The notes beneath the pieces were generated by a model. That model saw nothing but the letters and a program-made list of their open reading frames with translations. It was not told where the DNA came from and made no database searches. From NCBI GenBank assembly GCA_029856155.1, contig JAHQWL010000076.1, positions 1 through 20,878 of the forward strand: 20,878 nt of DNA, given 5' to 3'. This DNA is from Promethearchaeia archaeon (GTDB taxonomy: Archaea > Asgardarchaeota > Lokiarchaeia > Sigyniarchaeales > SOKP01). Below, one piece after another: positions 236 through 20,878 of this stretch; positions within the stretch are counted from its first letter, which is position 1, and the number at the start of each line of letters is the position of its first letter. The position numbers and the translations under genes are program-made.

Positions 236-502
236 TTAAGCGCTAATCAAACGGAATAATATAGAAGCATGAGGAATAAAGAATTCATCTTTACGTTTGA
301 TGACCACAGTGTGAAAATATTCTGCTAATCCTAAAAAACCACGAATAACTGATTCATCTTCCTCAAATCTAAAAATAACTGTTGCGATTGCAGCTCCTGT
401 ATTAAAATTAACCTTATCATACACTCTTTCGTCAATTAAGGGAATCTTTAGCTCATTAACAATTTCATAAACCCGTTTAATGAATAGTTCTCGCTTAGGC
501 AT
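236..502 (-). CDS. Hypothetical protein, 88 aa, predicted alpha/beta
   Basis: ATG start, normal globular composition, no competing ORF, and a T-tract (A8 at 220-227 on +) just after the stop. No recognisable motif. Confidence 0.8.
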   Translation of the reverse strand: MPKRELFIKRVYEIVNELKIPLIDERVYDKVNFNTGAAIATVIFRFEEDESVIRGFLGLAEYFHTVVIKRKDEFFIPHASILFRLISA

Positions 503-767: not shown

Positions 768-1487
768 GTGGTTTCAAAAGAACAGAAGAAAATTGAACGA
801 GTTATTAATTTCATGAAAAAGGGTTTAACATCTTTAGCTGACGATCTAGAAGAGACTGTTAAGGGGATAAATGACTTTATTAAATCATTAGCTAAAGCTC
901 AGAAAGATTTGAAAGAAGTATCTGTGGTTGAAGAAGTTCAAACCGTAAGCACTTCCTCTAAAAAAATAGTAGCTCCCACAAGTGAGGGGGCTAAAACTGC
1001 CGCTGCTAGCACTTTGTTTAGTCTTTTAAGCAGTACTGGAGGTGCTCCCGTTACTGCTTCAGGTTCAATACCCATACCAACTGCAGCCCCAGTATCAGCT
1101 ATTCCTTCAGCACCTGCCCCTTCTTCTGGAGGTGGGCCTCCAAAAGCACCTAGTTCTGGCCCCCCTAAAGCTCCTAGTGGAAGTCCTCCTAAACGACCTG
1201 GTTTACCACCAGCACCAAAATTGCCCCCTACTAGTGGAGGACCGCCTAAAGCTCCAGGCTCGCCACCCCAAGCACCTCCAGGAGCAGGACCTCCAAAACT
1301 TCCAAGTACAGGAGCACCTTCTGCACCCGCATTCGCAAAAAGACCAGGGTTACCTCCTGGTGGAATTGCTCCTGCCGCTCCCTCTGCTCCAGCTGTGGCA
1401 CCTAAACAAGGTGGAGGGTTAGGTTCGCTCCGTGACGAAATGCTTGACGAATTGAATCGACTTAAGAAGATTATGAGAGGAGAATAG
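768..1487 (+). CDS. Coiled-coil + proline-rich protein with a C-terminal WH2/C-helix/FAB-like amphipathic motif (candidate actin regulator)
   Basis: GTG start after GAGGAA (alternative ATG at 813). Residues ~5-50 show heptad hydrophobic periodicity, ~93-213 are Pro/Ala/Gly/Ser-rich with PPKxP repeats, and the protein ends GGGLGSLRDEMLDELNRLKKIMRGE. The CDS is well supported; the function is inferred. Confidence 0.85.
   Translation: MVSKEQKKIERVINFMKKGLTSLADDLEETVKGINDFIKSLAKAQKDLKEVSVVEEVQTVSTSSKKIVAPTSEGAKTAAASTLFSLLSSTGGAPVTASGSIPIPTAAPVSAIPSAPAPSSGGGPPKAPSSGPPKAPSGSPPKRPGLPPAPKLPPTSGGPPKAPGSPPQAPPGAGPPKLPSTGAPSAPAFAKRPGLPPGGIAPAAPSAPAVAPKQGGGLGSLRDEMLDELNRLKKIMRGE
1134..1358 (+). repeat. 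Intragenic degenerate peptide repeats (G/S)PP(K/Q)(A/R/L)P and KRPGLPP
   Basis: GPPKAP at residues 123, 131 and 158; SPPKRP at 139; SPPQAP at 165; GPPKLP at 174; KRPGLPP at 142 and 191. The first three units have a 24-nt period and differ at synonymous sites (gggcctccaaaagcacct vs ggcccccctaaagctcct). Confidence 0.85.
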
Positions 1488-1519
1488 TCTTTTATCAATA
1501 CGAGCCTAAATTGATTATA

Positions 1520-1527
1520 TTTTTTTT
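1520..1527 (+). terminator. Oligo-T terminator candidate after the proline-rich gene
   Basis: T8 run 32 nt after the TAG. Confidence 0.35.
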
Positions 1528-1768
1528 CTAGTAGTAAACCTATACTATCTTTAGATTTTTTTATAAGTAATATTACCTTTAAATTAAGAAATAATTATGC
1601 ACTTTTTCCATATTGCTTCATAAATCGTATTAGTTATACCTTTAGTTCAGCTCTATATTTTAATTTTTCAAGTTTTTTATTTTTTTCCAATTTATCCATT
1701 CTTTGAATAATCATAATAGAGATTAGATTCAACAAAGTTTTTTTAGGGTTTAGTAAAAATTATATATA

Positions 1769-2515
1769 ATGTTAGAAAATCGCTATTTAATTTGTGAGGA
1801 AGAAATCCCTATTATTGTGCCTAAAAGGATTATGGTTTTTGCTGGCCATCCCGACGATGAGTTAGTATCTTGTGGGGGTACGATCTTAAAATATCAAAAA
1901 CTAGGATCAGAAATTATAATTGTTATCGCTACTTTTGGCTTAGGAGGCTACGCCAAGGAAAAACATAAAGACAATATTGCTAAAAGAAGGAAAAATGAAT
2001 TAGAGCTAGTAAAGAAGTTTTTACAAAGTGAGATTATTGAGTTGGGCTATTCTGATTTACAAATTGATAGAACGAAAATCTCTCGGATTACTAATCTCAT
2101 CCGTGATTATAAACCTCAGGTAATTTTATTACCTCATTATTCAGATTTTCACCGTGTACATCGAAATTTATCATTAATCACACGAGAAGCAATATATCAC
2201 TGCTCTACAGGTAAAGCATATGCGGGACATATGAGGAGTTGGATTCCACTGGGTGTTTATTATTATGAATCTCCATCATGTAAATTTCAATACATAGAAG
2301 GATCTGTTTTTGTTATAGTGAATATAGAAGATTATTGGGAAAAGAAAAAAGAAATTTTTAACCATGTTTATACATCTCAAAAAGAAGTTTTAGAGCGTGT
2401 TTTAGATTGGGCAGAAGATACAGCAATTCTAAGGGGAAATGAAATAAATGCTGCTTTTGGTGAAGCATTTATGCCTGAGACCACATATACTCCATTAAAA
2501 ATTCTATTATTATAA
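1769..2515 (+). CDS. PIG-L/LmbE-family zinc-dependent de-N-acetylase
   Basis: N-terminal VFAGHPDDELVSCGGTI (HPDDE metal motif), RRxEL, IRxYKPxVIL, second His motif DFHRVH, SQ, and C-terminal RG...GEAF. Confidence 0.9.
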   Translation: MLENRYLICEEEIPIIVPKRIMVFAGHPDDELVSCGGTILKYQKLGSEIIIVIATFGLGGYAKEKHKDNIAKRRKNELELVKKFLQSEIIELGYSDLQIDRTKISRITNLIRDYKPQVILLPHYSDFHRVHRNLSLITREAIYHCSTGKAYAGHMRSWIPLGVYYYESPSCKFQYIEGSVFVIVNIEDYWEKKKEIFNHVYTSQKEVLERVLDWAEDTAILRGNEINAAFGEAFMPETTYTPLKILLL

Positions 2516-2608
2516 AAGTACGGAGATTTTTTTAATAATTAAAATAATATATTAGATATACTAGTTTAGGCTAAATATCTTAAAATTAAATTCAGAACCT
2601 ATTAAGGC

Positions 2609-3730
2609 ATGGGAAATCTAACAATAGTTCTTGATATTGGTCAGTTCAGCACTAAAATTGGATTTGCGGGAGAGGATACACCATCTCAAGTTTTTCTAAC
2701 AATGGTTGGAAAACCTAAATATAAAAGTGTAGATGTCAGTTATGAATCTAAGCAATCTCGTGAAGATGAAATCTATGTAGGAGATGAAATTCAATCAATT
2801 GGATTATATAAGATTTTTCATCCTATTGAGAAAGGAATTGTAGTGGATTGGACTCATTTTGAGAATATTATTGATTATATTTTTTACAACTTGAGAGTAG
2901 ATCCCACTCTTGTCAATGTATTATTCGCAGTACATCCATTATTTCCATATAATGACTTAGAGAAAATATTTAAGTTATTTTTAGAAAGATATCAATGTAT
3001 GGCGTTTTATCCAGTATTAGATTCAATGCTAACTCTATACTCCGGTGGGTTCCAAACAGGATTAATAGTAGAAATAGGAGATAGCAATACAAGAATTGTC
3101 CCGATTTATGAAGGATACAAGTTAGAGCATGCAGTAAGAATCTTAGATATTGGTGGAAAAGTACTAACTCATCATATGGAACAGATTTTAGAATCTATTG
3201 GATGGTCAGTCGATTCTTCTATTCGCAGAGAACTAGTAAGAGTTTTGAAGGAAAAAGCTTGTTTTGTATCTTTAGATTATAAAGAAGATCTAAAGCGAAG
3301 TGAACAGTATGAGAAAGAATATTCCCTTCCTGATGGTTCTACAATCTCACTTAATAAAGAAAGATTTATTATACCAGAATTATTGTTTAAACCTACTTCA
3401 GAATTAGAAGAAGATGCATTACAGGTAGCTATCATAGATGTAATTGAAGCTTGTGATTTAGATATTCGTACTGAGTTATTAAATAATATTTTTCTTTCGG
3501 GTGGTTCATCTATGTTTCCTAATTTAAAATCGCGTATCTATCAAGAATTAGAATTAGAGTTAGCAAGACGAAAGAAAAAGAATTTAGGAATTAGAATTAT
3601 CGCTCCAATGGAACGAACATTTTCTGTGTGGATTGGAGGATCAATTTTAGCAATGATTCCCGAATTTTCTCAAAATTGGATTACTCGCGCAAAATATTTT
3701 GAGGAGGGAATACCACCTAATTTACTTTAA
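2609..3730 (+). CDS. Actin-family protein, divergent Asgard actin/Arp-like paralog, 373 aa
   Basis: Colinear with actin over its full length: VLDIGQFSTKIGFAGEDTP (phosphate-1), YVGDE, PIEKGIVVDW, VEIGDSNTRIVPIYEGY (phosphate-2), KEKACFV, YSLPDG, ERFIIPELLFKP, CDLDIR, LSGGSSMFP (adenosine) and IIAPMERTFSVWIGGSILA. Confidence 0.96.
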   Translation: MGNLTIVLDIGQFSTKIGFAGEDTPSQVFLTMVGKPKYKSVDVSYESKQSREDEIYVGDEIQSIGLYKIFHPIEKGIVVDWTHFENIIDYIFYNLRVDPTLVNVLFAVHPLFPYNDLEKIFKLFLERYQCMAFYPVLDSMLTLYSGGFQTGLIVEIGDSNTRIVPIYEGYKLEHAVRILDIGGKVLTHHMEQILESIGWSVDSSIRRELVRVLKEKACFVSLDYKEDLKRSEQYEKEYSLPDGSTISLNKERFIIPELLFKPTSELEEDALQVAIIDVIEACDLDIRTELLNNIFLSGGSSMFPNLKSRIYQELELELARRKKKNLGIRIIAPMERTFSVWIGGSILAMIPEFSQNWITRAKYFEEGIPPNLL

Positions 3731-3843: not shown

Positions 3844-4188
3844 ATGAAGATGGATGAATTTGAAGAAAATAAGTTTTATAAACCAAGTTATTCCCATTTG
3901 TTCAATAGAATTAAGGATATCAAAACACCAATAAAAAATGAAATATTAATTGCCCTCCTCGATGGTCATTGGCATTCTGAATTAGAAATAATAAGAGTTA
4001 CTAAAAGGCAACATGGATTCATTGGAAGTGTTACTTTGGGTACAATGGTAACTTCATTGAATCATTATATAAAAAATAACTATCTGCAGAAGAAGATAGT
4101 GAATGGTAAGCTTTATTATAAGATATCAGATAATTACGTTGGACTTACGAGAGCAGCATATAGGTTTGATGCAAATGATTTTCTTTAA
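3844..4188 (+). CDS. Small hypothetical protein, probable winged helix-turn-helix fold
   Basis: Pattern of helix (PIKNEILIALLDG), short strand/helix (WHSELEIIRV), helix (SVTLGTMVTSL) and beta-hairpin wing (YLQKKIVNGKLYYKIS) typical of wHTH proteins. The fold is inferred by eye. Confidence 0.7.
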   Translation: MKMDEFEENKFYKPSYSHLFNRIKDIKTPIKNEILIALLDGHWHSELEIIRVTKRQHGFIGSVTLGTMVTSLNHYIKNNYLQKKIVNGKLYYKISDNYVGLTRAAYRFDANDFL

Positions 4189-4491: not shown

Positions 4492-6636
4492 TTATTTTTT
4501 TATGCATCTGCCTTTAAAAATTCTGTATTCCTCACAATTAGAACAGAATCCCTTACCTGATTTTTCTTTAAAACTTTCATTCCAACATTTAGGACATAAA
4601 TAATAAGTAAGGAGTTTATTATTTTTTCTAAGTTCAACTTTAAAAATATTAAAATTACAAATTGAACAGACTGAATTTAACAATTGTAATTTTCCATTCT
4701 TTGGTAAGGATAAATAGTGTTTGCAATTTTCATTAGAACAAACTAAAAATCTTTTACTTTTAATATCAATGAATTTCATAGGAGATGCAATACAAAAAGG
4801 ACAATTTGAAGTAGTGAGTGGGATCGTATAATCCATCTTATAAGTATCAATTTTAGAAGTTAATTTATGTTTATTTACCAAGAATTTATCAAACAGCTGT
4901 AAAAACTCATTTCTTATCTCATCTACAACATCATTCATTTTCTTTTTTTTATCTTTAATTTCTTCAAGTTTTTCCTCCACTTTTCTTGTAAAATCGGGCT
5001 TTAAAAATGGTAACCATATTTCAATTAAATTTTCTATTATAAATTTACCTAAATCCGTTATAAAATAATGAAGTTTCAATCTTTTTGTTAAACTACGAGT
5101 TTGCAATAATTTTATGATAACTGGTCTAGTAGATTTCGTACCTAAATGATTTTTTTCCATTATTTTAAGCAATGACGTATCATTGTATCTAGGAGGGGGT
5201 TTTGTTTCTTTTTGGATAAATAAAACCTCCTTTAATGGGATGTCATTTCCAATAATTTGAATGATAGAGTCATATTTTGGTTTAAGAAAAGGAGCAATTT
5301 CTAGAAATCCTGGAGAGATTAATGCTACAAATTGAGCTTGAAATGGCTCTTCTTTTATGAGAATTTTTAAAACTTGTTTTGATTCCAAGGCTTCTTCTCC
5401 AAAGAGTGCTAGATAATGACGTGCGAGTATATTATAAACTTTTTTTTGTAAATCATTTTCAAATCTTGAACTATTAAGCTCTATACTTTCAAGAGGTGTA
5501 ATAGGGGGGTGATCGCCCATATCTTTCTTTCCTTTCGTTGGTTTTGTTCTATTATTCTTCAAAAGATTCATAGAATAATTTTTAAATTGGGAATGTAAAG
5601 TGAATTTCTTTAAGATTTCAAAGTGATTAAAATCAGACTTATATACATCACTATCAGTTCTCGGATATGAAATTAACATATTAAGATATAAAGCATTCAT
5701 AGTCCGCATAGCTATATTAGCTGAAATTTTTAAGTTTTTTGTTAACAGGACTAAAGCTTTAGATGTATTCAATGGAGTAGGTGGGGCTCTTCTTAATGCA
5801 TTTTTAGAGTTATTAACGATCTTACCAATTTTCTCATCTTTAATCTTTTGAAAAATTTCTCTAACTATGACTTCATTATCCTTCATGAAAGGATTATGTT
5901 GGTGATGTGCTCGAAAAACTCCATTTACATGAAACAAATCAGCATCAATTAGAAAATAGGGTTCTGGAATAAAATTCAGAATCACTTGTTCCCTGAGATA
6001 TATTAAATAAAGAAGACTAGTCTGAACGCGGCCAATTGAAGTAAATCTAACTCTAAATTTATTTAATAAAGGACGTAGAGTATTTGTTATTTCTCTAGTA
6101 GCTGAAAAACCAATGAATGCATCGATGATTGCTCTAGCCTCTCCCGATTCGCCCCAACTATATTTTGGACTTATAAGATTAGTAAATTTATTTAAAATTT
6201 CATTTTTTTGAAGAGAACTAAGCCATAATTGCGATATTTTGATACTAGGATTAATATGTTTTACAAATGGTAGTGCATCAAACAGGCCAATATTGCAACC
6301 TTCTATATCAGCATCTGTCCCGATGACACAATGATTAGAAATTTTTGAATATTCCTTTAAAGAATTTATATGTGGATAAGCATAACTACTAGGTACTTTT
6401 TCAATTGCATTAGGATTTGTTATAATGTCTCGTGGACTCGTTTTTGTCCAACTTTTAAAAACATCTGTATTCCTATATTCAAGGATATGTCCTCGTAATG
6501 GAACTACATAAATATTTTTTGATTCAACTAAGTAAATATTTAATGCTTTAGCTTTTTTTATTATTTTAACTGTTCCTAATGCATTTGCAATAGCTTCTGC
6601 GGCTTTATTTTTTTCTGTAATTATTAAGGTTGTCAT
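4492..6636 (-). CDS. topA: Type IA DNA topoisomerase (archaeal TopA/Topo III) with C-terminal zinc-binding region
   Basis: TOPRIM LIITEK, GHIL, GTDADIEG, SIGRVQT, catalytic ISYPRTDS, DHPPITP, LGTKSTR and several C-terminal CxxC pairs. SD-like GAAAGGT lies upstream of the ATG. Confidence 0.96.
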   Translation of the reverse strand: MTTLIITEKNKAAEAIANALGTVKIIKKAKALNIYLVESKNIYVVPLRGHILEYRNTDVFKSWTKTSPRDIITNPNAIEKVPSSYAYPHINSLKEYSKISNHCVIGTDADIEGCNIGLFDALPFVKHINPSIKISQLWLSSLQKNEILNKFTNLISPKYSWGESGEARAIIDAFIGFSATREITNTLRPLLNKFRVRFTSIGRVQTSLLYLIYLREQVILNFIPEPYFLIDADLFHVNGVFRAHHQHNPFMKDNEVIVREIFQKIKDEKIGKIVNNSKNALRRAPPTPLNTSKALVLLTKNLKISANIAMRTMNALYLNMLISYPRTDSDVYKSDFNHFEILKKFTLHSQFKNYSMNLLKNNRTKPTKGKKDMGDHPPITPLESIELNSSRFENDLQKKVYNILARHYLALFGEEALESKQVLKILIKEEPFQAQFVALISPGFLEIAPFLKPKYDSIIQIIGNDIPLKEVLFIQKETKPPPRYNDTSLLKIMEKNHLGTKSTRPVIIKLLQTRSLTKRLKLHYFITDLGKFIIENLIEIWLPFLKPDFTRKVEEKLEEIKDKKKKMNDVVDEIRNEFLQLFDKFLVNKHKLTSKIDTYKMDYTIPLTTSNCPFCIASPMKFIDIKSKRFLVCSNENCKHYLSLPKNGKLQLLNSVCSICNFNIFKVELRKNNKLLTYYLCPKCWNESFKEKSGKGFCSNCEEYRIFKGRCIKK

Positions 6637-17046: not shown

Positions 17047-18537
17047 CTAAATTCCATAAATAGGATAGTATTTATCTTCAACGTATTTAATAAAATAATC
17101 GGGATTTAAATCTTCTCCAGTAATCTTCTGAATTAAATCGGGAGCTCTATAGATTTTACCATATTGATGCACTTTTTCTTTTAGATAATTTAAAAGGTTA
17201 GAGAATTCTCCTTTCTCATAATCTTGGGGTAAAGAAGGGTTTTCTTTTAAAGCATGATTATATATTTGAGCAGCATAAAGATTTCCTAAAGAATAACTAG
17301 GGAAATAACCGAATCCACTTGTCCAATGTACATCTTGTAGTACACCTAGAGCATCATTCGGAGGTACTATTCCTAATAATTCCTCCATTTTTGTATTCCA
17401 TAGTTCTGGCAATTCACTTGCTTGAAGATTATCTTCGATTATCATTTTCTCTAGTTCAAATCGTAGTATAATATGTAATCCATAAGTCACCTCATCAGCA
17501 TCTACTCGGATAAATGATGGTTGTACTACATTTATAGAACGATGAAATTCTTCCATTGGATAATTTTTCAAATTTTCCGGAAAAGTTTTTTGAAAGATAG
17601 GATACCAATACGTCCAAAATTCCTTACTACGCCCAACTACATTTTCCCACATTCGAGATTGAGATTCATGAATCCCCATAGAACACCCCTCAGCTAATAA
17701 TGTATCATGAATCTCTTCTTTAAATCCCATTTGGTAAAGAGCATGTCCACATTCATGAATTGTGGAAAATAAGCAATCAGGAAGAAAGTCTTCACGTATT
17801 CTAGTGGTTATCCTTGTATCTATAGATGATAATGAAGTAGTAAAAGGGTGTGTTGCTTTGTCTTGTCGTCCGGTATTAAAATCAAAATTGAGTTTCTTAA
17901 TTATTTCAAGACTTAATTGCCATTGTTTTTCAGCATCATAATGTTTTTTTAAGATTGATTGATTAGGTTTATCAGACATACTATTTAGCTTATTGACAAT
18001 CTTTACTAATTTAGGTTTCAATCCATTGAAGACTTTTAAGATGTAGTCATAAGTAACACCTGGTTCGAACAAATCTAATAAAGTTGAGTATAATGTTGGA
18101 CCTTTATCAAGTTTCTCGGCGAATTCTATTCTTAATTTAATAATTTTCTCGAGATAAGGCTTGAATATTGAAAAATCACTTTTTTCTCTTGCTTTTTCCC
18201 ATTCTATATGCCCCAATGACGAAATTTTAGCAATTTTAGCCACTAACTCATTAGGAATTTTGATTGCTTGATCATATTCTCTTTTTGCTTCTCTTATCAT
18301 CGCTAAATCTATTTCACTAAGGCTTTCTAATTTTTCAGCTTCTTTTATCAATTTGCCAGTTTTATCTGATTTTACTCTGGAATGAATTAAATTTTGCATT
18401 AGTGCTAATTGCTCAGCTCTTCCTTTCACGGAACCCTTAGGCATATTAACTTGTTGATCCCAACTTAAAAGAGCTCCAATATAAGATAATCTCATTATTT
18501 CATTAAAATATTCCCAAAGTTCTTTCATTGCGTTCAT
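17047..18537 (-). CDS. Carboxypeptidase, peptidase family M32 (CP Taq/PfuCP-like), paralog 1
   Basis: LLSWDQ, HPF, DTRITTR, HECGH (HExxH), HESQS, IRVDADE, H..LRFELE, G.LQDVHW and GYFPSYSLG. Confidence 0.97.
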   Translation of the reverse strand: MNAMKELWEYFNEIMRLSYIGALLSWDQQVNMPKGSVKGRAEQLALMQNLIHSRVKSDKTGKLIKEAEKLESLSEIDLAMIREAKREYDQAIKIPNELVAKIAKISSLGHIEWEKAREKSDFSIFKPYLEKIIKLRIEFAEKLDKGPTLYSTLLDLFEPGVTYDYILKVFNGLKPKLVKIVNKLNSMSDKPNQSILKKHYDAEKQWQLSLEIIKKLNFDFNTGRQDKATHPFTTSLSSIDTRITTRIREDFLPDCLFSTIHECGHALYQMGFKEEIHDTLLAEGCSMGIHESQSRMWENVVGRSKEFWTYWYPIFQKTFPENLKNYPMEEFHRSINVVQPSFIRVDADEVTYGLHIILRFELEKMIIEDNLQASELPELWNTKMEELLGIVPPNDALGVLQDVHWTSGFGYFPSYSLGNLYAAQIYNHALKENPSLPQDYEKGEFSNLLNYLKEKVHQYGKIYRAPDLIQKITGEDLNPDYFIKYVEDKYYPIYGI

Positions 18538-18648
18538 ATTTTAATCATTTTAGGGAGTTATTTGTAAATTATATAGAGAATGCTAATTAACGTAATACAA
18601 AAAAGTTTTTGCTTTCTAATTCAAAAACTTAATATTTTTGATGAATAG

Positions 18649-18657
18649 AAAAAAAAA
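18649..18657 (-). terminator. Oligo-T terminator candidate after the upstream M32 gene
   Basis: T9 on the minus strand 1 nt after the TAA, in the same position as the tract after the other paralog. Confidence 0.5.
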
Positions 18658-18658
18658 G

Positions 18659-20155
18659 TTATAATCTATATAGAGGGTAAAATTTCTTTTCGAGGTACTT
18701 CATAAAGTAATTAGAATTTAGGTTTTCTCCCGTTATTCTTTTTATTAAATCTGGTGCTCTAAATACAGCTCCATGTTGATGAACATTCTCTCGGACAAAA
18801 TTCAATAAATTTGAAAATTCACCTTTTTTATAGTCTTCTGGTAGATTTGGCATCTTTTTTAATGCAACATCGTACATTTGAGCTGCGTATAAAGTTCCTA
18901 GAAAATATGTTGGGAAATAACCAATCATTCCCATTCCCCAGTGTATATCTTGCAATACACCTTCTTTGTCATCTGGTGGAATGATTCCTAACAATTCCTC
19001 AAATCTAGAATTCCATATTTGCGGCAACTCACTTACTTGGATTTTTTCGTCAATAAGATCTTTTTCGATTTCAAATCGTAGTATAATATGTAATCCATAA
19101 GTTACCTCATCTGCATTTACCCTAATAAATGAAGGTTGAACTGAATTAACCGCACGATGAAATTCTTCCATAGGATAATCTTTTAAGTTTTCTGGGAAAG
19201 TCTTTTGAAAAATCGGATACCAATACATCCAAAATTCTTTACTACGCCCCACAAAATTTTCTAACATTCTTGATTGTGATTCATGGATTCCAAGTGAAGT
19301 ACCAGTACCCAATATTGTGTCATGTAGTTCTTTTTTAAAGCCCATCTCATATAGAGCATGACCGCATTCATGAATAGTTCCAAAAATACATTCATTAAGA
19401 AAATCCTCCCTTGTTCTTGTAGTTATTCGAGTATCCGTAGAAGATAATGTTGTTGTAAAAGGATGGGTTGATAGATCTTGACGTCCCGCTTCAAAGTCAA
19501 AATTCAATTTTTTTATTATTTCGAGACTAAGTTTAAATTGTTTATCTTGATCGTAGTTTTTCCGTAATATTGATTGATCAGGTTTATCAGTTGATGAATT
19601 CAATTTTTTAACAAAATCGATTAGTTTAGGCTTTATTGGATTAAAAATATTAGCGACCCAATTGTATGTTGCACCTGGTTCATATAAATCAATCAGAGTA
19701 GAATATAAATCTGGATGAGTTTCAAGTTTCCTTGCTTTCTCCCTTTGTAATTCAACTGTTTTTTCCAATAAAGGTATAAACATTTTGAAATCTTTTTTTT
19801 CTCTTGCTTTTTGCCATGTTTGTTGAGATAGTCCAGCAGTTTTTGTTATTTCCATAACTAATTCTTCTGGTAATTTTACTTCCTGTTCATAAGCTCTTTT
19901 TGCTTCTCTTAGCATTGCAGCATCGATTTCATTTAAATCTTTAAGTTTTTCAGCTTTATTAATTAATTTTTCTGCTTTTTCTGACGTTAAACGCTTGTGC
20001 ATAAGTTGTGCTATAAGTGCCAATTGTTCAGATCTACCTTCTACAGATTTATAACCCCTCATATTAACTTCCTGATCCCAACCAAGTAATGCTTGGATGT
20101 AATTCAATCTCATTATTTCAGTAAAATATTCACGAAGATCATTGATAACACTCAT
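18659..20155 (-). CDS. Carboxypeptidase, peptidase family M32, paralog 2
   Basis: LLGWDQ, HPF, DTRITTR, HECGH, HESQS, IRVNADE, QDIHW and GYFPTYFLG. Colinear with paralog 1. Confidence 0.97.
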   Translation of the reverse strand: MSVINDLREYFTEIMRLNYIQALLGWDQEVNMRGYKSVEGRSEQLALIAQLMHKRLTSEKAEKLINKAEKLKDLNEIDAAMLREAKRAYEQEVKLPEELVMEITKTAGLSQQTWQKAREKKDFKMFIPLLEKTVELQREKARKLETHPDLYSTLIDLYEPGATYNWVANIFNPIKPKLIDFVKKLNSSTDKPDQSILRKNYDQDKQFKLSLEIIKKLNFDFEAGRQDLSTHPFTTTLSSTDTRITTRTREDFLNECIFGTIHECGHALYEMGFKKELHDTILGTGTSLGIHESQSRMLENFVGRSKEFWMYWYPIFQKTFPENLKDYPMEEFHRAVNSVQPSFIRVNADEVTYGLHIILRFEIEKDLIDEKIQVSELPQIWNSRFEELLGIIPPDDKEGVLQDIHWGMGMIGYFPTYFLGTLYAAQMYDVALKKMPNLPEDYKKGEFSNLLNFVRENVHQHGAVFRAPDLIKRITGENLNSNYFMKYLEKKFYPLYRL

Positions 20156-20335: not shown

Positions 20336-20878
20336 TTAAGATAACTGTTCTTGTTTGACGAAGAAATCTGCTGCTAATTCCACATCTTGAATTGTTACAG
20401 GTCTCCCTAAAGATCTTTCTAATTCTATAATTAAATTTTTACATAAATTTAAGCTTAAAGAACTACCTTTACTTATAATAATTTTTTGTAATTCTTTAGT
20501 AAAATCGATAATTAGGGGTTTTTCTATCTCTTTTTTGATATCTTCATGAGGGCTGAATATCTCTATGGGCATTTTTGCTTTAGGTTTTGTCACATTATCT
20601 GTTTTATCGATCTGGGGTTCTTTACTTATTTCTTGAGATATAGATGCTTTTTTTATGGTTTTTTGTGGTGCCTTTGGAATTTTGAGTGGTTTTATATCAA
20701 TATCTTTATCTAATTTTTGAAATGAAACTAAACCTTTAGCAGGTTTTGAAGGAATAGCTTGGGATTCTTCTTTTAAGGCCTCTTGATCTTGAAATTGATC
20801 TGATGTCGCTGTGTCTGTGGTAGGAAGTGGCTTTACAGTTACTTTCCTCGAAAACATTAAAGGTTTCGAAATGTCAAA
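20336..20878 (-). CDS. Hypothetical protein, probably 5'-partial: K/E/P-rich disordered linker plus small C-terminal helical domain
   Basis: The frame stays open upstream of the ATG at 20857 to the window edge (FDISKPL-M), so the real start is probably outside the window. The last ~58 aa look like 3 amphipathic helices. Confidence 0.7.
   Translation of the reverse strand, partial: FDISKPLMFSRKVTVKPLPTTDTATSDQFQDQEALKEESQAIPSKPAKGLVSFQKLDKDIDIKPLKIPKAPQKTIKKASISQEISKEPQIDKTDNVTKPKAKMPIEIFSPHEDIKKEIEKPLIIDFTKELQKIIISKGSSLSLNLCKNLIIELERSLGRPVTIQDVELAADFFVKQEQLS

Follow-up and report, generated by a model that had tools for sequence, protein, structure and literature searches.

An actin-like gene downstream of a gene for a proline-rich protein in a Lokiarchaeial genome raises the question of whether the two encode an actin-nucleating pair and, if they do not, what the proline-rich protein does. 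Asgard cells crawl by Lokiactin-dependent protrusions (PMC13716822), yet no machinery for nucleating filaments has been identified in the group (PMC9433394). In the window (the whole 20,878-nucleotide stretch that was analysed), the open reading frames at 768-1487, 1769-2515 and 2609-3730 are all present and run in the same direction on the + strand, with 1,121 bp separating the first from the third. The first encodes PRO, a 239-residue proline-rich, adaptor-like protein with a GTG start, the second a PIG-L-family de-N-acetylase of 248 residues (Pfam E 2.6e-22), and the third a 373-residue Asgard ARP-type actin paralog (Pfam Actin, E 9e-90). This confirms the layout described in the first-pass annotation, in which same-strand genes for a Pro-rich protein and an actin lie 1.1 kb apart with a deacetylase between them.

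The order of coiled coil, Pro-rich region and C-terminal helix that had been claimed for PRO is real and conserved, as seen in the AlphaFold model and in 37 homologs. The N-terminal coiled-coil helix (residues 4-49, 777..914, + strand; pLDDT 90-96) has a clean heptad, with hydrophobic residues at 95% of a and 82% of d positions across the 37 diverse homologs, and is presumed to be an oligomerisation head. In the same model and on the same strand, it is followed by a second, short, conserved amphipathic helix of the LxxLL-G type (residues 75-91, 990..1040), a disordered Pro/Gly/Ala/Ser arm with GPPxxP units (1041..1418), and a near-invariant C-terminal helix (residues 218-236, 1419..1475, pLDDT ~92) with the consensus LRxEMLxELxRLKxIM; no globular domain is present. 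The GC content of the arm is 56% as against 30% for the window, and proline makes up 17% of the protein, with a longest run of two residues (two to four in 36 of the 37 homologs). Over the last 22 codons of the + frame, 156 changed codons among 15 orthologs are synonymous and 25 nonsynonymous. The frame is under purifying selection, and the antisense ORF at 938-1498 is therefore a shadow. The GenBank record of the cultured strain B35 (Ca. Lokiarchaeum ossiferum) annotates the antisense shadow ORF in place of the PRO gene, and for this reason PRO was probably undetectable by the published Lokiactin co-immunoprecipitation (co-IP; bioRxiv 10.1101/2025.11.30.690169, PMC13716822). The corrected PRO frame of B35 is located on CP104013.1, minus strand, at about 729,367-730,182, antisense to UYP44328.1. 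The absence of PRO from that experiment was rejected as evidence, the gene being probably missing from the search database. A search of the ESM Atlas returned only PRO's own cluster, and a literature search found no description of the family. PRO is a member of a real, previously undescribed protein family of most Asgard archaea.

Within this near pan-Asgard family, the window encodes the form with a soluble head. The profile of the end helix matches 327 of 400 Asgard genomes, usually in single copy, and the helix stands behind either a coiled-coil or a transmembrane head, on the same type of arm, the two kinds of head being unrelated by profile comparison. Small-GTPase, Zn-finger, LRR and Sec23-like proteins also carry it, in some cases as tandem copies, and it can lie internally as well as terminally. 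This genome's gelsolins have neither the helix nor the head. The end helix is a portable module and looks like a binding motif; it has no sequence match to WH2 or to known actin-binding helices. It is almost unchanged in lineages where the actin paralog was not found, and three complete genomes (G303, G002 and G004) encode a helix protein and a single actin, which is a Lokiactin. The end helix is far older and wider spread than the actin paralog. A match is absent from three genomes that are 93-96% complete and have a Lokiactin (G001, G005 and G310). Across the phylum, Lokiactin sequences share 69-93% identity, a conservation that matches the invariance of the end helix and was counted for Lokiactin as its partner. 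Counted likewise was the divergence of actin in families f22-f25, where the end helix was not found.

Across Asgard genomes, the linkage of PRO to the actin paralog holds in part. Throughout the window's family (f1), PRO lies at most 6 kb upstream of the paralog and co-oriented with it in 107 of 107 genomes that have both on the same contig, a count in which a few gene ends were estimated from ORF length and genomes of one family are not independent. In 32 of these genomes PRO directly abuts the actin gene, indicating that the deacetylase is dispensable for the block. In the sister family f3, the linkage is broken (0 of 4), with PRO and the paralog 43-272 kb apart, B35 included. Even within f1, the two genes stay together no more closely than do unrelated neighbours that serve as synteny controls. 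Of 21 family loci, 19 have a conserved 114-residue gene with no Pfam match (3844..4188, +) after the actin paralog, and 16 have an opposite-strand type IA topoisomerase-like gene (topA, its identity read off the sequence; 4492..6636, −) in the block; C0, an 88-residue alpha/beta protein divergently transcribed from PRO (236..502, −), is linked in 19 of 21. Parts of the C0-PRO-deacetylase-actin order survive in families f2 and f3, so the block is old, and it is probably ancestral to the taxonomic order. This age and the direct abutments were counted against a reading of the two genes as incidental neighbours. The transmembrane forms, for their part, adjoin rpiA, PIN-ATPase and tRNA endonuclease-like genes across classes, indicating that neighbourhoods can last without obvious shared function. 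What places PRO beside the actin paralog is gene order passed down within a single family.

Separate transcription had been suspected from T-tracts at 1520-1527 and 2527-2533. Both are present in the sequence, the first being a T8 tract 3' of the PRO stop on the + strand and a possible terminator. Their diagnostic weight is weakened by the fact that 20% of this genome's long ORFs have a T7 no more than 60 nt from their stop; pyrimidine-rich tracts lie 3' of most PRO orthologs. The gap between PRO and the paralog is never below 129 bp. An AT-rich element 5' of the paralog (2519..2608, +) is kept in the genus (the window, L036, L037 and L038), and because it is conserved whether the deacetylase is present or absent, it is probably the paralog's own promoter region. 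A sigma-70 scan, with a model unsuited to archaea, stayed at chance level.

The divergent full-length actin proves to be an ARP-type paralog, orthologous to UYP44126.1 of B35 by shared clade, by a published primer that matches the locus, and by exact record. In a tree built without eukaryotic sequences, it falls outside the Lokiactin clade (this genome's Lokiactins are L001 and L002), in a separate long-stem clade (support 100/100, stem 1.65) that comprises only f1 and f3. Its best PDB matches are conventional actins, and the non-Lokiactin actin homologs of B35 cluster with ARPs (PMC9834061). The UYP44126.1 group has already been catalogued (PMC9834061); the clade-wide loss of Q137 and H161 and the change in the S14/G15 loop are new observations here. 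None of 18 paralog orthologs keeps Q137 or H161, with D, G or E at 137 and R at 161, and these orthologs have Q or E at 14 and F or Y at 15. Arp2 and Arp3 retain the catalytic Gln137 and His161 (PMC9894260). Judged by these residues, the paralog is probably a pseudo-ATPase, a non-hydrolysing ARP-type protein. It retains a hydrophobic barbed-end cleft with a clade-specific R147F change. The UYP44126.1 transcript in B35 is severalfold below that of Lokiactin, and the tag of the paralog, mapped by a +7 offset deduced from the paper's identifier table together with two molecular weights, is absent from the listed rows of the cross-linked Lokiactin co-IP, all enriched rows included.

The explanation somewhat favoured takes PRO to be the soluble version of a tethered adaptor, near pan-Asgard and typically single-copy, and attributes the nearby position of the actin paralog to inherited gene order. 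The head would fix the protein, through a coiled coil that may oligomerise here, and through a transmembrane segment with a helical hairpin in other lineages. The disordered Pro-rich arm of 100-130 residues would provide reach, and the 19-residue amphipathic end helix would dock in the groove of a partner common to most Asgard archaea. The neighbouring paralog would be separately regulated. Put forward tentatively as the single likeliest partner is canonical Lokiactin, whose barbed-end groove the helix would engage in the manner of arcadin-2 or WH2; the adaptor, tethered to a membrane or within an oligomer, would then anchor or sequester actin or help its elongation. That the end helix is a near pan-Asgard actin-binding module linking Lokiactin to the membrane, either by tethering or by serving as a multivalent nucleation/elongation factor, is more doubtful. 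Such a module would be membrane-anchored by its transmembrane head in some lineages and clustered by coiled coils in Loki-, Hel-, Thor- and Odin-type lineages. Actin remains a live candidate partner of the end helix.

Arcadin-2, which partners crenactin in the Pyrobaculum arcade cluster (PMC5173319, PDB 5LY3), was counted as a precedent for docking on Lokiactin. Binding of arcadin-2 needs a Trp, which the PRO helix lacks; arcadin-2 depolymerises and does not nucleate (PMC5173319); and the PRO end helix, unlike arcadin-2, is far wider spread than the adjacent actin. Counted against the adaptor/Lokiactin view were the absence of a sequence match to WH2 or known actin-binding helices, the three Lokiactin genomes without a helix match and the resemblance of the helix to MIM1 tails.

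This resemblance forms the basis of the best surviving alternative, which is possible but rather unlikely: the end helix may be an extended MIM1-type ligand of MIT domains, such as that of Vps4, by which the family would recruit or regulate ESCRT-III/Vps4 at membranes rather than actin. In ESCRT-III proteins of the Vps2/24/46 class, as in PRO, a disordered stretch ends in an amphipathic helix, and MIM1- and MIM2-like tails are known in Asgard archaea (PMC7240154). When this genome's 3,159 C-termini are ranked against the helix profile, a Vps2/24/46-type ESCRT-III tail comes first after the self match (rank 2); a second ESCRT-III ranks 8 under the full 16-residue profile, and other Asgard ESCRT-III tails are mostly in the top 0.1-4%. 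However, the ESCRT-III tail scores 3.8 bits with the full profile as against 53.9 for self, and with the core profile, whose window was picked after the likeness had been noticed, a HAD hydrolase tail ranks 3. The register L/M-x-x-E-L-x-R-L-K is common to the end helix and ESCRT-III tails, and the MIM1 pattern (hydrophobic at i, i+4 and i+7, K/R at i+8), which is short and degenerate, fits M225, L229, L232 and K233. At 19 residues, however, the PRO helix exceeds the ESCRT-III tails in length, and it exceeds them in invariance too; it occurs also internally and in tandem, and is borne by a protein without a Snf7 core. Transmembrane forms of family f9 bear MIM2-like LPEIP or LPAIP words, but such words are found in only 9 of 105 arms. 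The genome encodes a Vps4-MIT and further weak MIT matches, and fusions of the helix to Sec23-like and small-GTPase proteins are compatible with trafficking. Against this, family f24 keeps ESCRT-III with no end helix detected; co-loss of the helix with actin or with ESCRT-III discriminates only weakly.

Somewhat less probable still is that the helix serves self-association or heteromer formation, whether as a VASP-like tetramer, by folding back on the head or by binding C0, in which case PRO would be a scaffold or condensate hub without a cytoskeletal partner. C0 is the most constant neighbour of PRO across the phylum; it adjoins PRO in nine families, in which the two genes can be divergent, tandem or convergent, and it is co-distributed with the soluble head. 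Its model is confident (pLDDT 92.5), and a fold search gave a best Z of 4.4 and no Foldseek match at E<=0.001. Lineages with transmembrane heads nevertheless keep the helix without a detectable C0, indicating that C0 could bind the head at most. The helix is amphipathic without a break through I235/M236 and its tandem copies could form bundles, but its invariant charged face (R222, E224, E228, R231 and K233) suggests a specific partner surface. Ena/VASP proteins, with a Pro-rich region, GAB, FAB and a tetramerising coiled coil, resemble PRO in an oligomerising helix, a Pro-rich arm and a short helix preceded by a Gly-rich linker. PRO differs from them in lacking EVH1 and GPPPPP repeats, in its N-terminal coiled coil and in the absence of a Pfam or PDB sequence match; it likewise has no match to the VASP tetramerisation domain.

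The machinery closest to the original proposal is that of WASP/WAVE/WASH (VCA) with Arp2/3, which PRO resembles in its order of coiled coil, Pro-rich region and terminal amphipathic helix, with an actin-related gene nearby. The hallmarks of nucleation-promoting factors (NPFs) are missing from PRO, which has a single terminal helix. In five genomes, the WH2 profile PF02205 does not match the PRO locus even at E<=10, and it matches 0 of 40 helix motif copies; the LKKI of the end helix lies inside one continuous helix, and its position 3 is often S or E. In the 37 homologs there is no acidic, Trp-containing A motif and no Trp near the C-terminus, and the protein ends 3-6 residues past the helix with a mostly positive net charge. 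Profilin-binding poly-Pro runs are absent upstream of the helix, and the polyproline of VASP is not bound by Loki and Odin profilins (PMC8410842). ARPC2/ARPC4 (PF05856, PF04045) gave no matches in five genomes, in which no positive control matched either. The idea of the head as a CCDC53/HSPC300 ancestor gained no support: PF10152 has no match at the locus in five genomes and matches 1 of 37 family members (E 0.012), among generic coiled-coil matches. That PRO is a proto-NPF dedicated to the adjacent Arp-like paralog, with clustered helices that engage it and seed filaments, is highly improbable: the f1 linkage, the probably ancestral block, the retained barbed-end cleft and the ARP clustering speak for it, but the linkage breaks in f3, the helix is unchanged in lineages where the paralog was not found, the NPF hallmarks and Q137/H161 are lacking, the paralog's inferred tag is absent from the co-IP rows, and the intergenic gap and the paralog's own upstream element set the two genes apart.

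An NPF-Arp pairing would be remarkable if true, but is unlikely. The family is kept by ~80% of Asgard genomes and carries a near-invariant helix on an anchored arm. These traits make it a strong candidate for a central component of the cell, whether actin or the ESCRT ATPase proves to be the partner. Because the B35 record annotates the wrong frame, proteomic data already collected may contain the answer. If it is true that the family binds Lokiactin, it would supply the missing connection from Lokiactin to the membrane, perhaps overlooked in B35 because the antisense frame was annotated.

The window genome is of the Lokiarchaeia type (4.1 Mb, 97% complete) and harbors five actin-family genes. 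The three co-oriented ORFs named by the first-pass annotation are present, all on the + strand: a Pro-rich protein (PRO, 768-1487), a PIG-L deacetylase (1769-2515) and a divergent actin paralog (2609-3730). The coiled-coil, Pro-rich and C-terminal-helix layout ascribed to PRO likewise holds, as the structure model places a disordered arm between two N-terminal helices (one of 46 residues, then a shorter one at 75-91) and the end helix (218-236), with a clean heptad pattern in the head; its + frame is under strong purifying selection. The T-tracts taken as possible signs of separate transcription do follow the genes, but such tracts are common in this genome. Elsewhere in the window are two tandem paralogous genes for putative M32-type carboxypeptidases (17047-20155, - strand), assigned from a HEXGH motif, and the C-terminal portion of a low-complexity protein without a Pfam match (20336-20878, - strand), truncated by the contig end.

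PRO has at least 214 homologs, all annotated as "hypothetical". Its last 24 residues are nearly invariant within f1, the family of the window genome, and a profile built from just the end helix matches 327 of 400 phylum genomes, mostly with one copy each. Soluble full-length relatives occur throughout the class and in families that appear to be of the Thor and Odin types; in the remaining lineages, the same arm and end helix have a different head, with a transmembrane segment followed by a helical hairpin and no relation to the soluble one. Small-GTPase, Zn-finger, LRR and Sec23-like proteins also contain the helix, single or in tandem, as does a second protein of the window genome. Because it is found in most phylum genomes, behind two heads and inside other proteins, the end helix is, judged by its sequence distribution, a portable docking-type module under phylum-wide constraint.

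Several arrangements of the helix stand out. In one set of proteins (L144:3117-3626, that is G000:C71:119116-119625; P0158, P0162, P0165, P0169, L032, L137), one to three copies precede a Zn-finger-like domain with four cysteines that is itself undescribed, and some members also carry a Ras/Roc GTPase fusion or end in a longin-like region. In the Asgard family f16 (L116, L118, L149, L151), more than ten predicted membrane spans precede hairpin, arm and helix, a form duplicated in tandem in genome G075. The homolog P0126 joins an N-terminal membrane span to a C-terminal TIR domain, a combination that could be genuine or the product of read-through.

Conserved synteny, proposed as a check on the pairing of PRO with the paralog, holds throughout f1, where PRO is co-oriented and less than 6 kb upstream in 107/107 same-contig cases (direct neighbors in 32), but fails in the sister family f3, where none of four same-contig cases is close (43-272 kb), including strain B35 and a complete genome presumed to be MK-D1. 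Functional inference from this linkage is weakened further because a 114-aa gene, an opposite-strand topoisomerase-like gene and the 88-aa gene C0 remain in the block about as faithfully. The PRO-paralog gap is at least 129 bp in every case, and the paralog has its own conserved upstream element, kept with or without the deacetylase. At L063 and L065 (f3), deacetylase and paralog abut (gap of ~15 bp or overlap). PRO is absent from this operon-like arrangement, and the paralog may have had the deacetylase as its older partner. The most constant neighbor of PRO is C0 (236-502, - strand), adjoining it in nine families and three orientations. Old Asgard neighborhoods need not mean common function, since transmembrane forms of the PRO family adjoin rpiA and tRNA-endonuclease-like genes across classes.

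In the actin tree, the paralog clade has a long stem (support 100/100), is confined to two families and stands apart from Lokiactin. Both Lokiactin copies of the window genome, L001 and L002 (G000:C4 and C26), fall in the Lokiactin clade; they are 85% identical, one with a longer branch, reflecting recent duplication or contamination (5.7% for this genome). Q137 and H161, catalytic residues that are both retained in Arp2 and Arp3 (PMC9894260), are missing and the phosphate loop is altered in 18/18 paralog orthologs examined. The description "Arp-like" is apt in a loose sense, for a protein that is probably a pseudo-ATPase, and by the Q137/H161 test does not extend to Arp2/3 orthology. A profile search of five genomes, run without a positive control, did not find ARPC2 or ARPC4. 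The B35 ortholog, UYP44126.1, is among ARP-cluster homologs with transcripts severalfold lower than those of Lokiactin (PMC9834061).

As for the partner of the end helix, Lokiactin is the likeliest single candidate, if a tentative one. The helix protein is present in complete genomes whose sole actin is Lokiactin; if the helix binds actin, the ancestral partner would be Lokiactin. Arcadin-2, apparently unrelated, provides a precedent for an archaeal tail helix able to bind the actin groove (PMC5173319). A cross-linked Lokiactin co-IP study from B35 reported profilin, gelsolins and an ARF GTPase (bioRxiv 10.1101/2025.11.30.690169), with protein tags that appear to correspond to the GenBank annotation at an offset of +7. 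In that annotation, the PRO locus (L056:7368-8183; CP104013.1, about 729.4-730.2 kb) is called as a 230-aa antisense ORF, UYP44328.1 (NEF87_000613, "collagen-like" in UniRef), between UYP44327.1 and UYP44329.1; a different gene set alone has the true frame of 268 aa. Among the rows listed, the tag of the shadow ORF is missing; PRO was probably invisible to the spectral search, and its absence is thus uninformative. The window has an equivalent shadow ORF (938-1498, - strand). The paralog's inferred tag is missing among the proteome rows listed and from all enriched co-IP rows. Among the listed rows of supplementary table 2, several proteins match Lokiactin's own enrichment, including GNAMCCOK_04250 (20.6 kDa, 21 peptides) and GNAMCCOK_04085 (56.4 kDa, 44 peptides). 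In B35, a Ras/Arf-family GTPase gene (L057:8726-9295) lies immediately upstream of the paralog, and the products of the next two genes on its far side (inferred tags 00420 and 00421) show modest enrichment in the Lokiactin co-IP (log2 1.0 and 1.5).

It is possible, if on balance unlikely, that the helix binds itself, C0 or another protein. C0, a highly conserved alpha/beta protein, is distributed in parallel with the soluble PRO head; it has no Pfam match, and its fold resembles none clearly. In the B35 proteome its inferred tag, GNAMCCOK_00427, stands at high abundance (mean 20.7), but it is unenriched in the Lokiactin co-IP rows listed.

We consider it rather unlikely, while rating it close to the actin model, that the end helix is a MIM1-like ligand of MIT domains. 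MIT domains are present in the window genome, both of its ESCRT-III tails are in register with the helix core, and these tails come second and eighth among 3,159 C-termini scored with the full helix profile. For Asgard ESCRT-III, tails of the MIM1 type that bind MIT domains have been proposed (PMC7240154). However, the matches of the two tails have low absolute scores, and a hydrolase tail ranks 3 against the core of the profile.

That PRO is a dedicated nucleation-promoting factor (NPF) for the adjacent paralog is very improbable given the f3 split, the equally linked control genes and the missing NPF hallmarks. WH2 and CCDC53 profiles have no match at the PRO locus (E<=10), neither family members nor end-helix copies have a consistent Pfam or PDB match, and PRO lacks both the acidic or Trp tail of WASP-type NPFs and their poly-Pro run, which by sequence places it outside these families; Loki and Odin profilins did not bind polyproline (PMC8410842). 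PRO could still work like an NPF. What the first-pass annotation observed stands, and its interpretation survives in part, without the dedicated NPF-Arp pairing. The reading we somewhat favor is that PRO is an undescribed, near pan-Asgard adaptor with a tethered docking helix, and that the paralog is its inherited neighbor.
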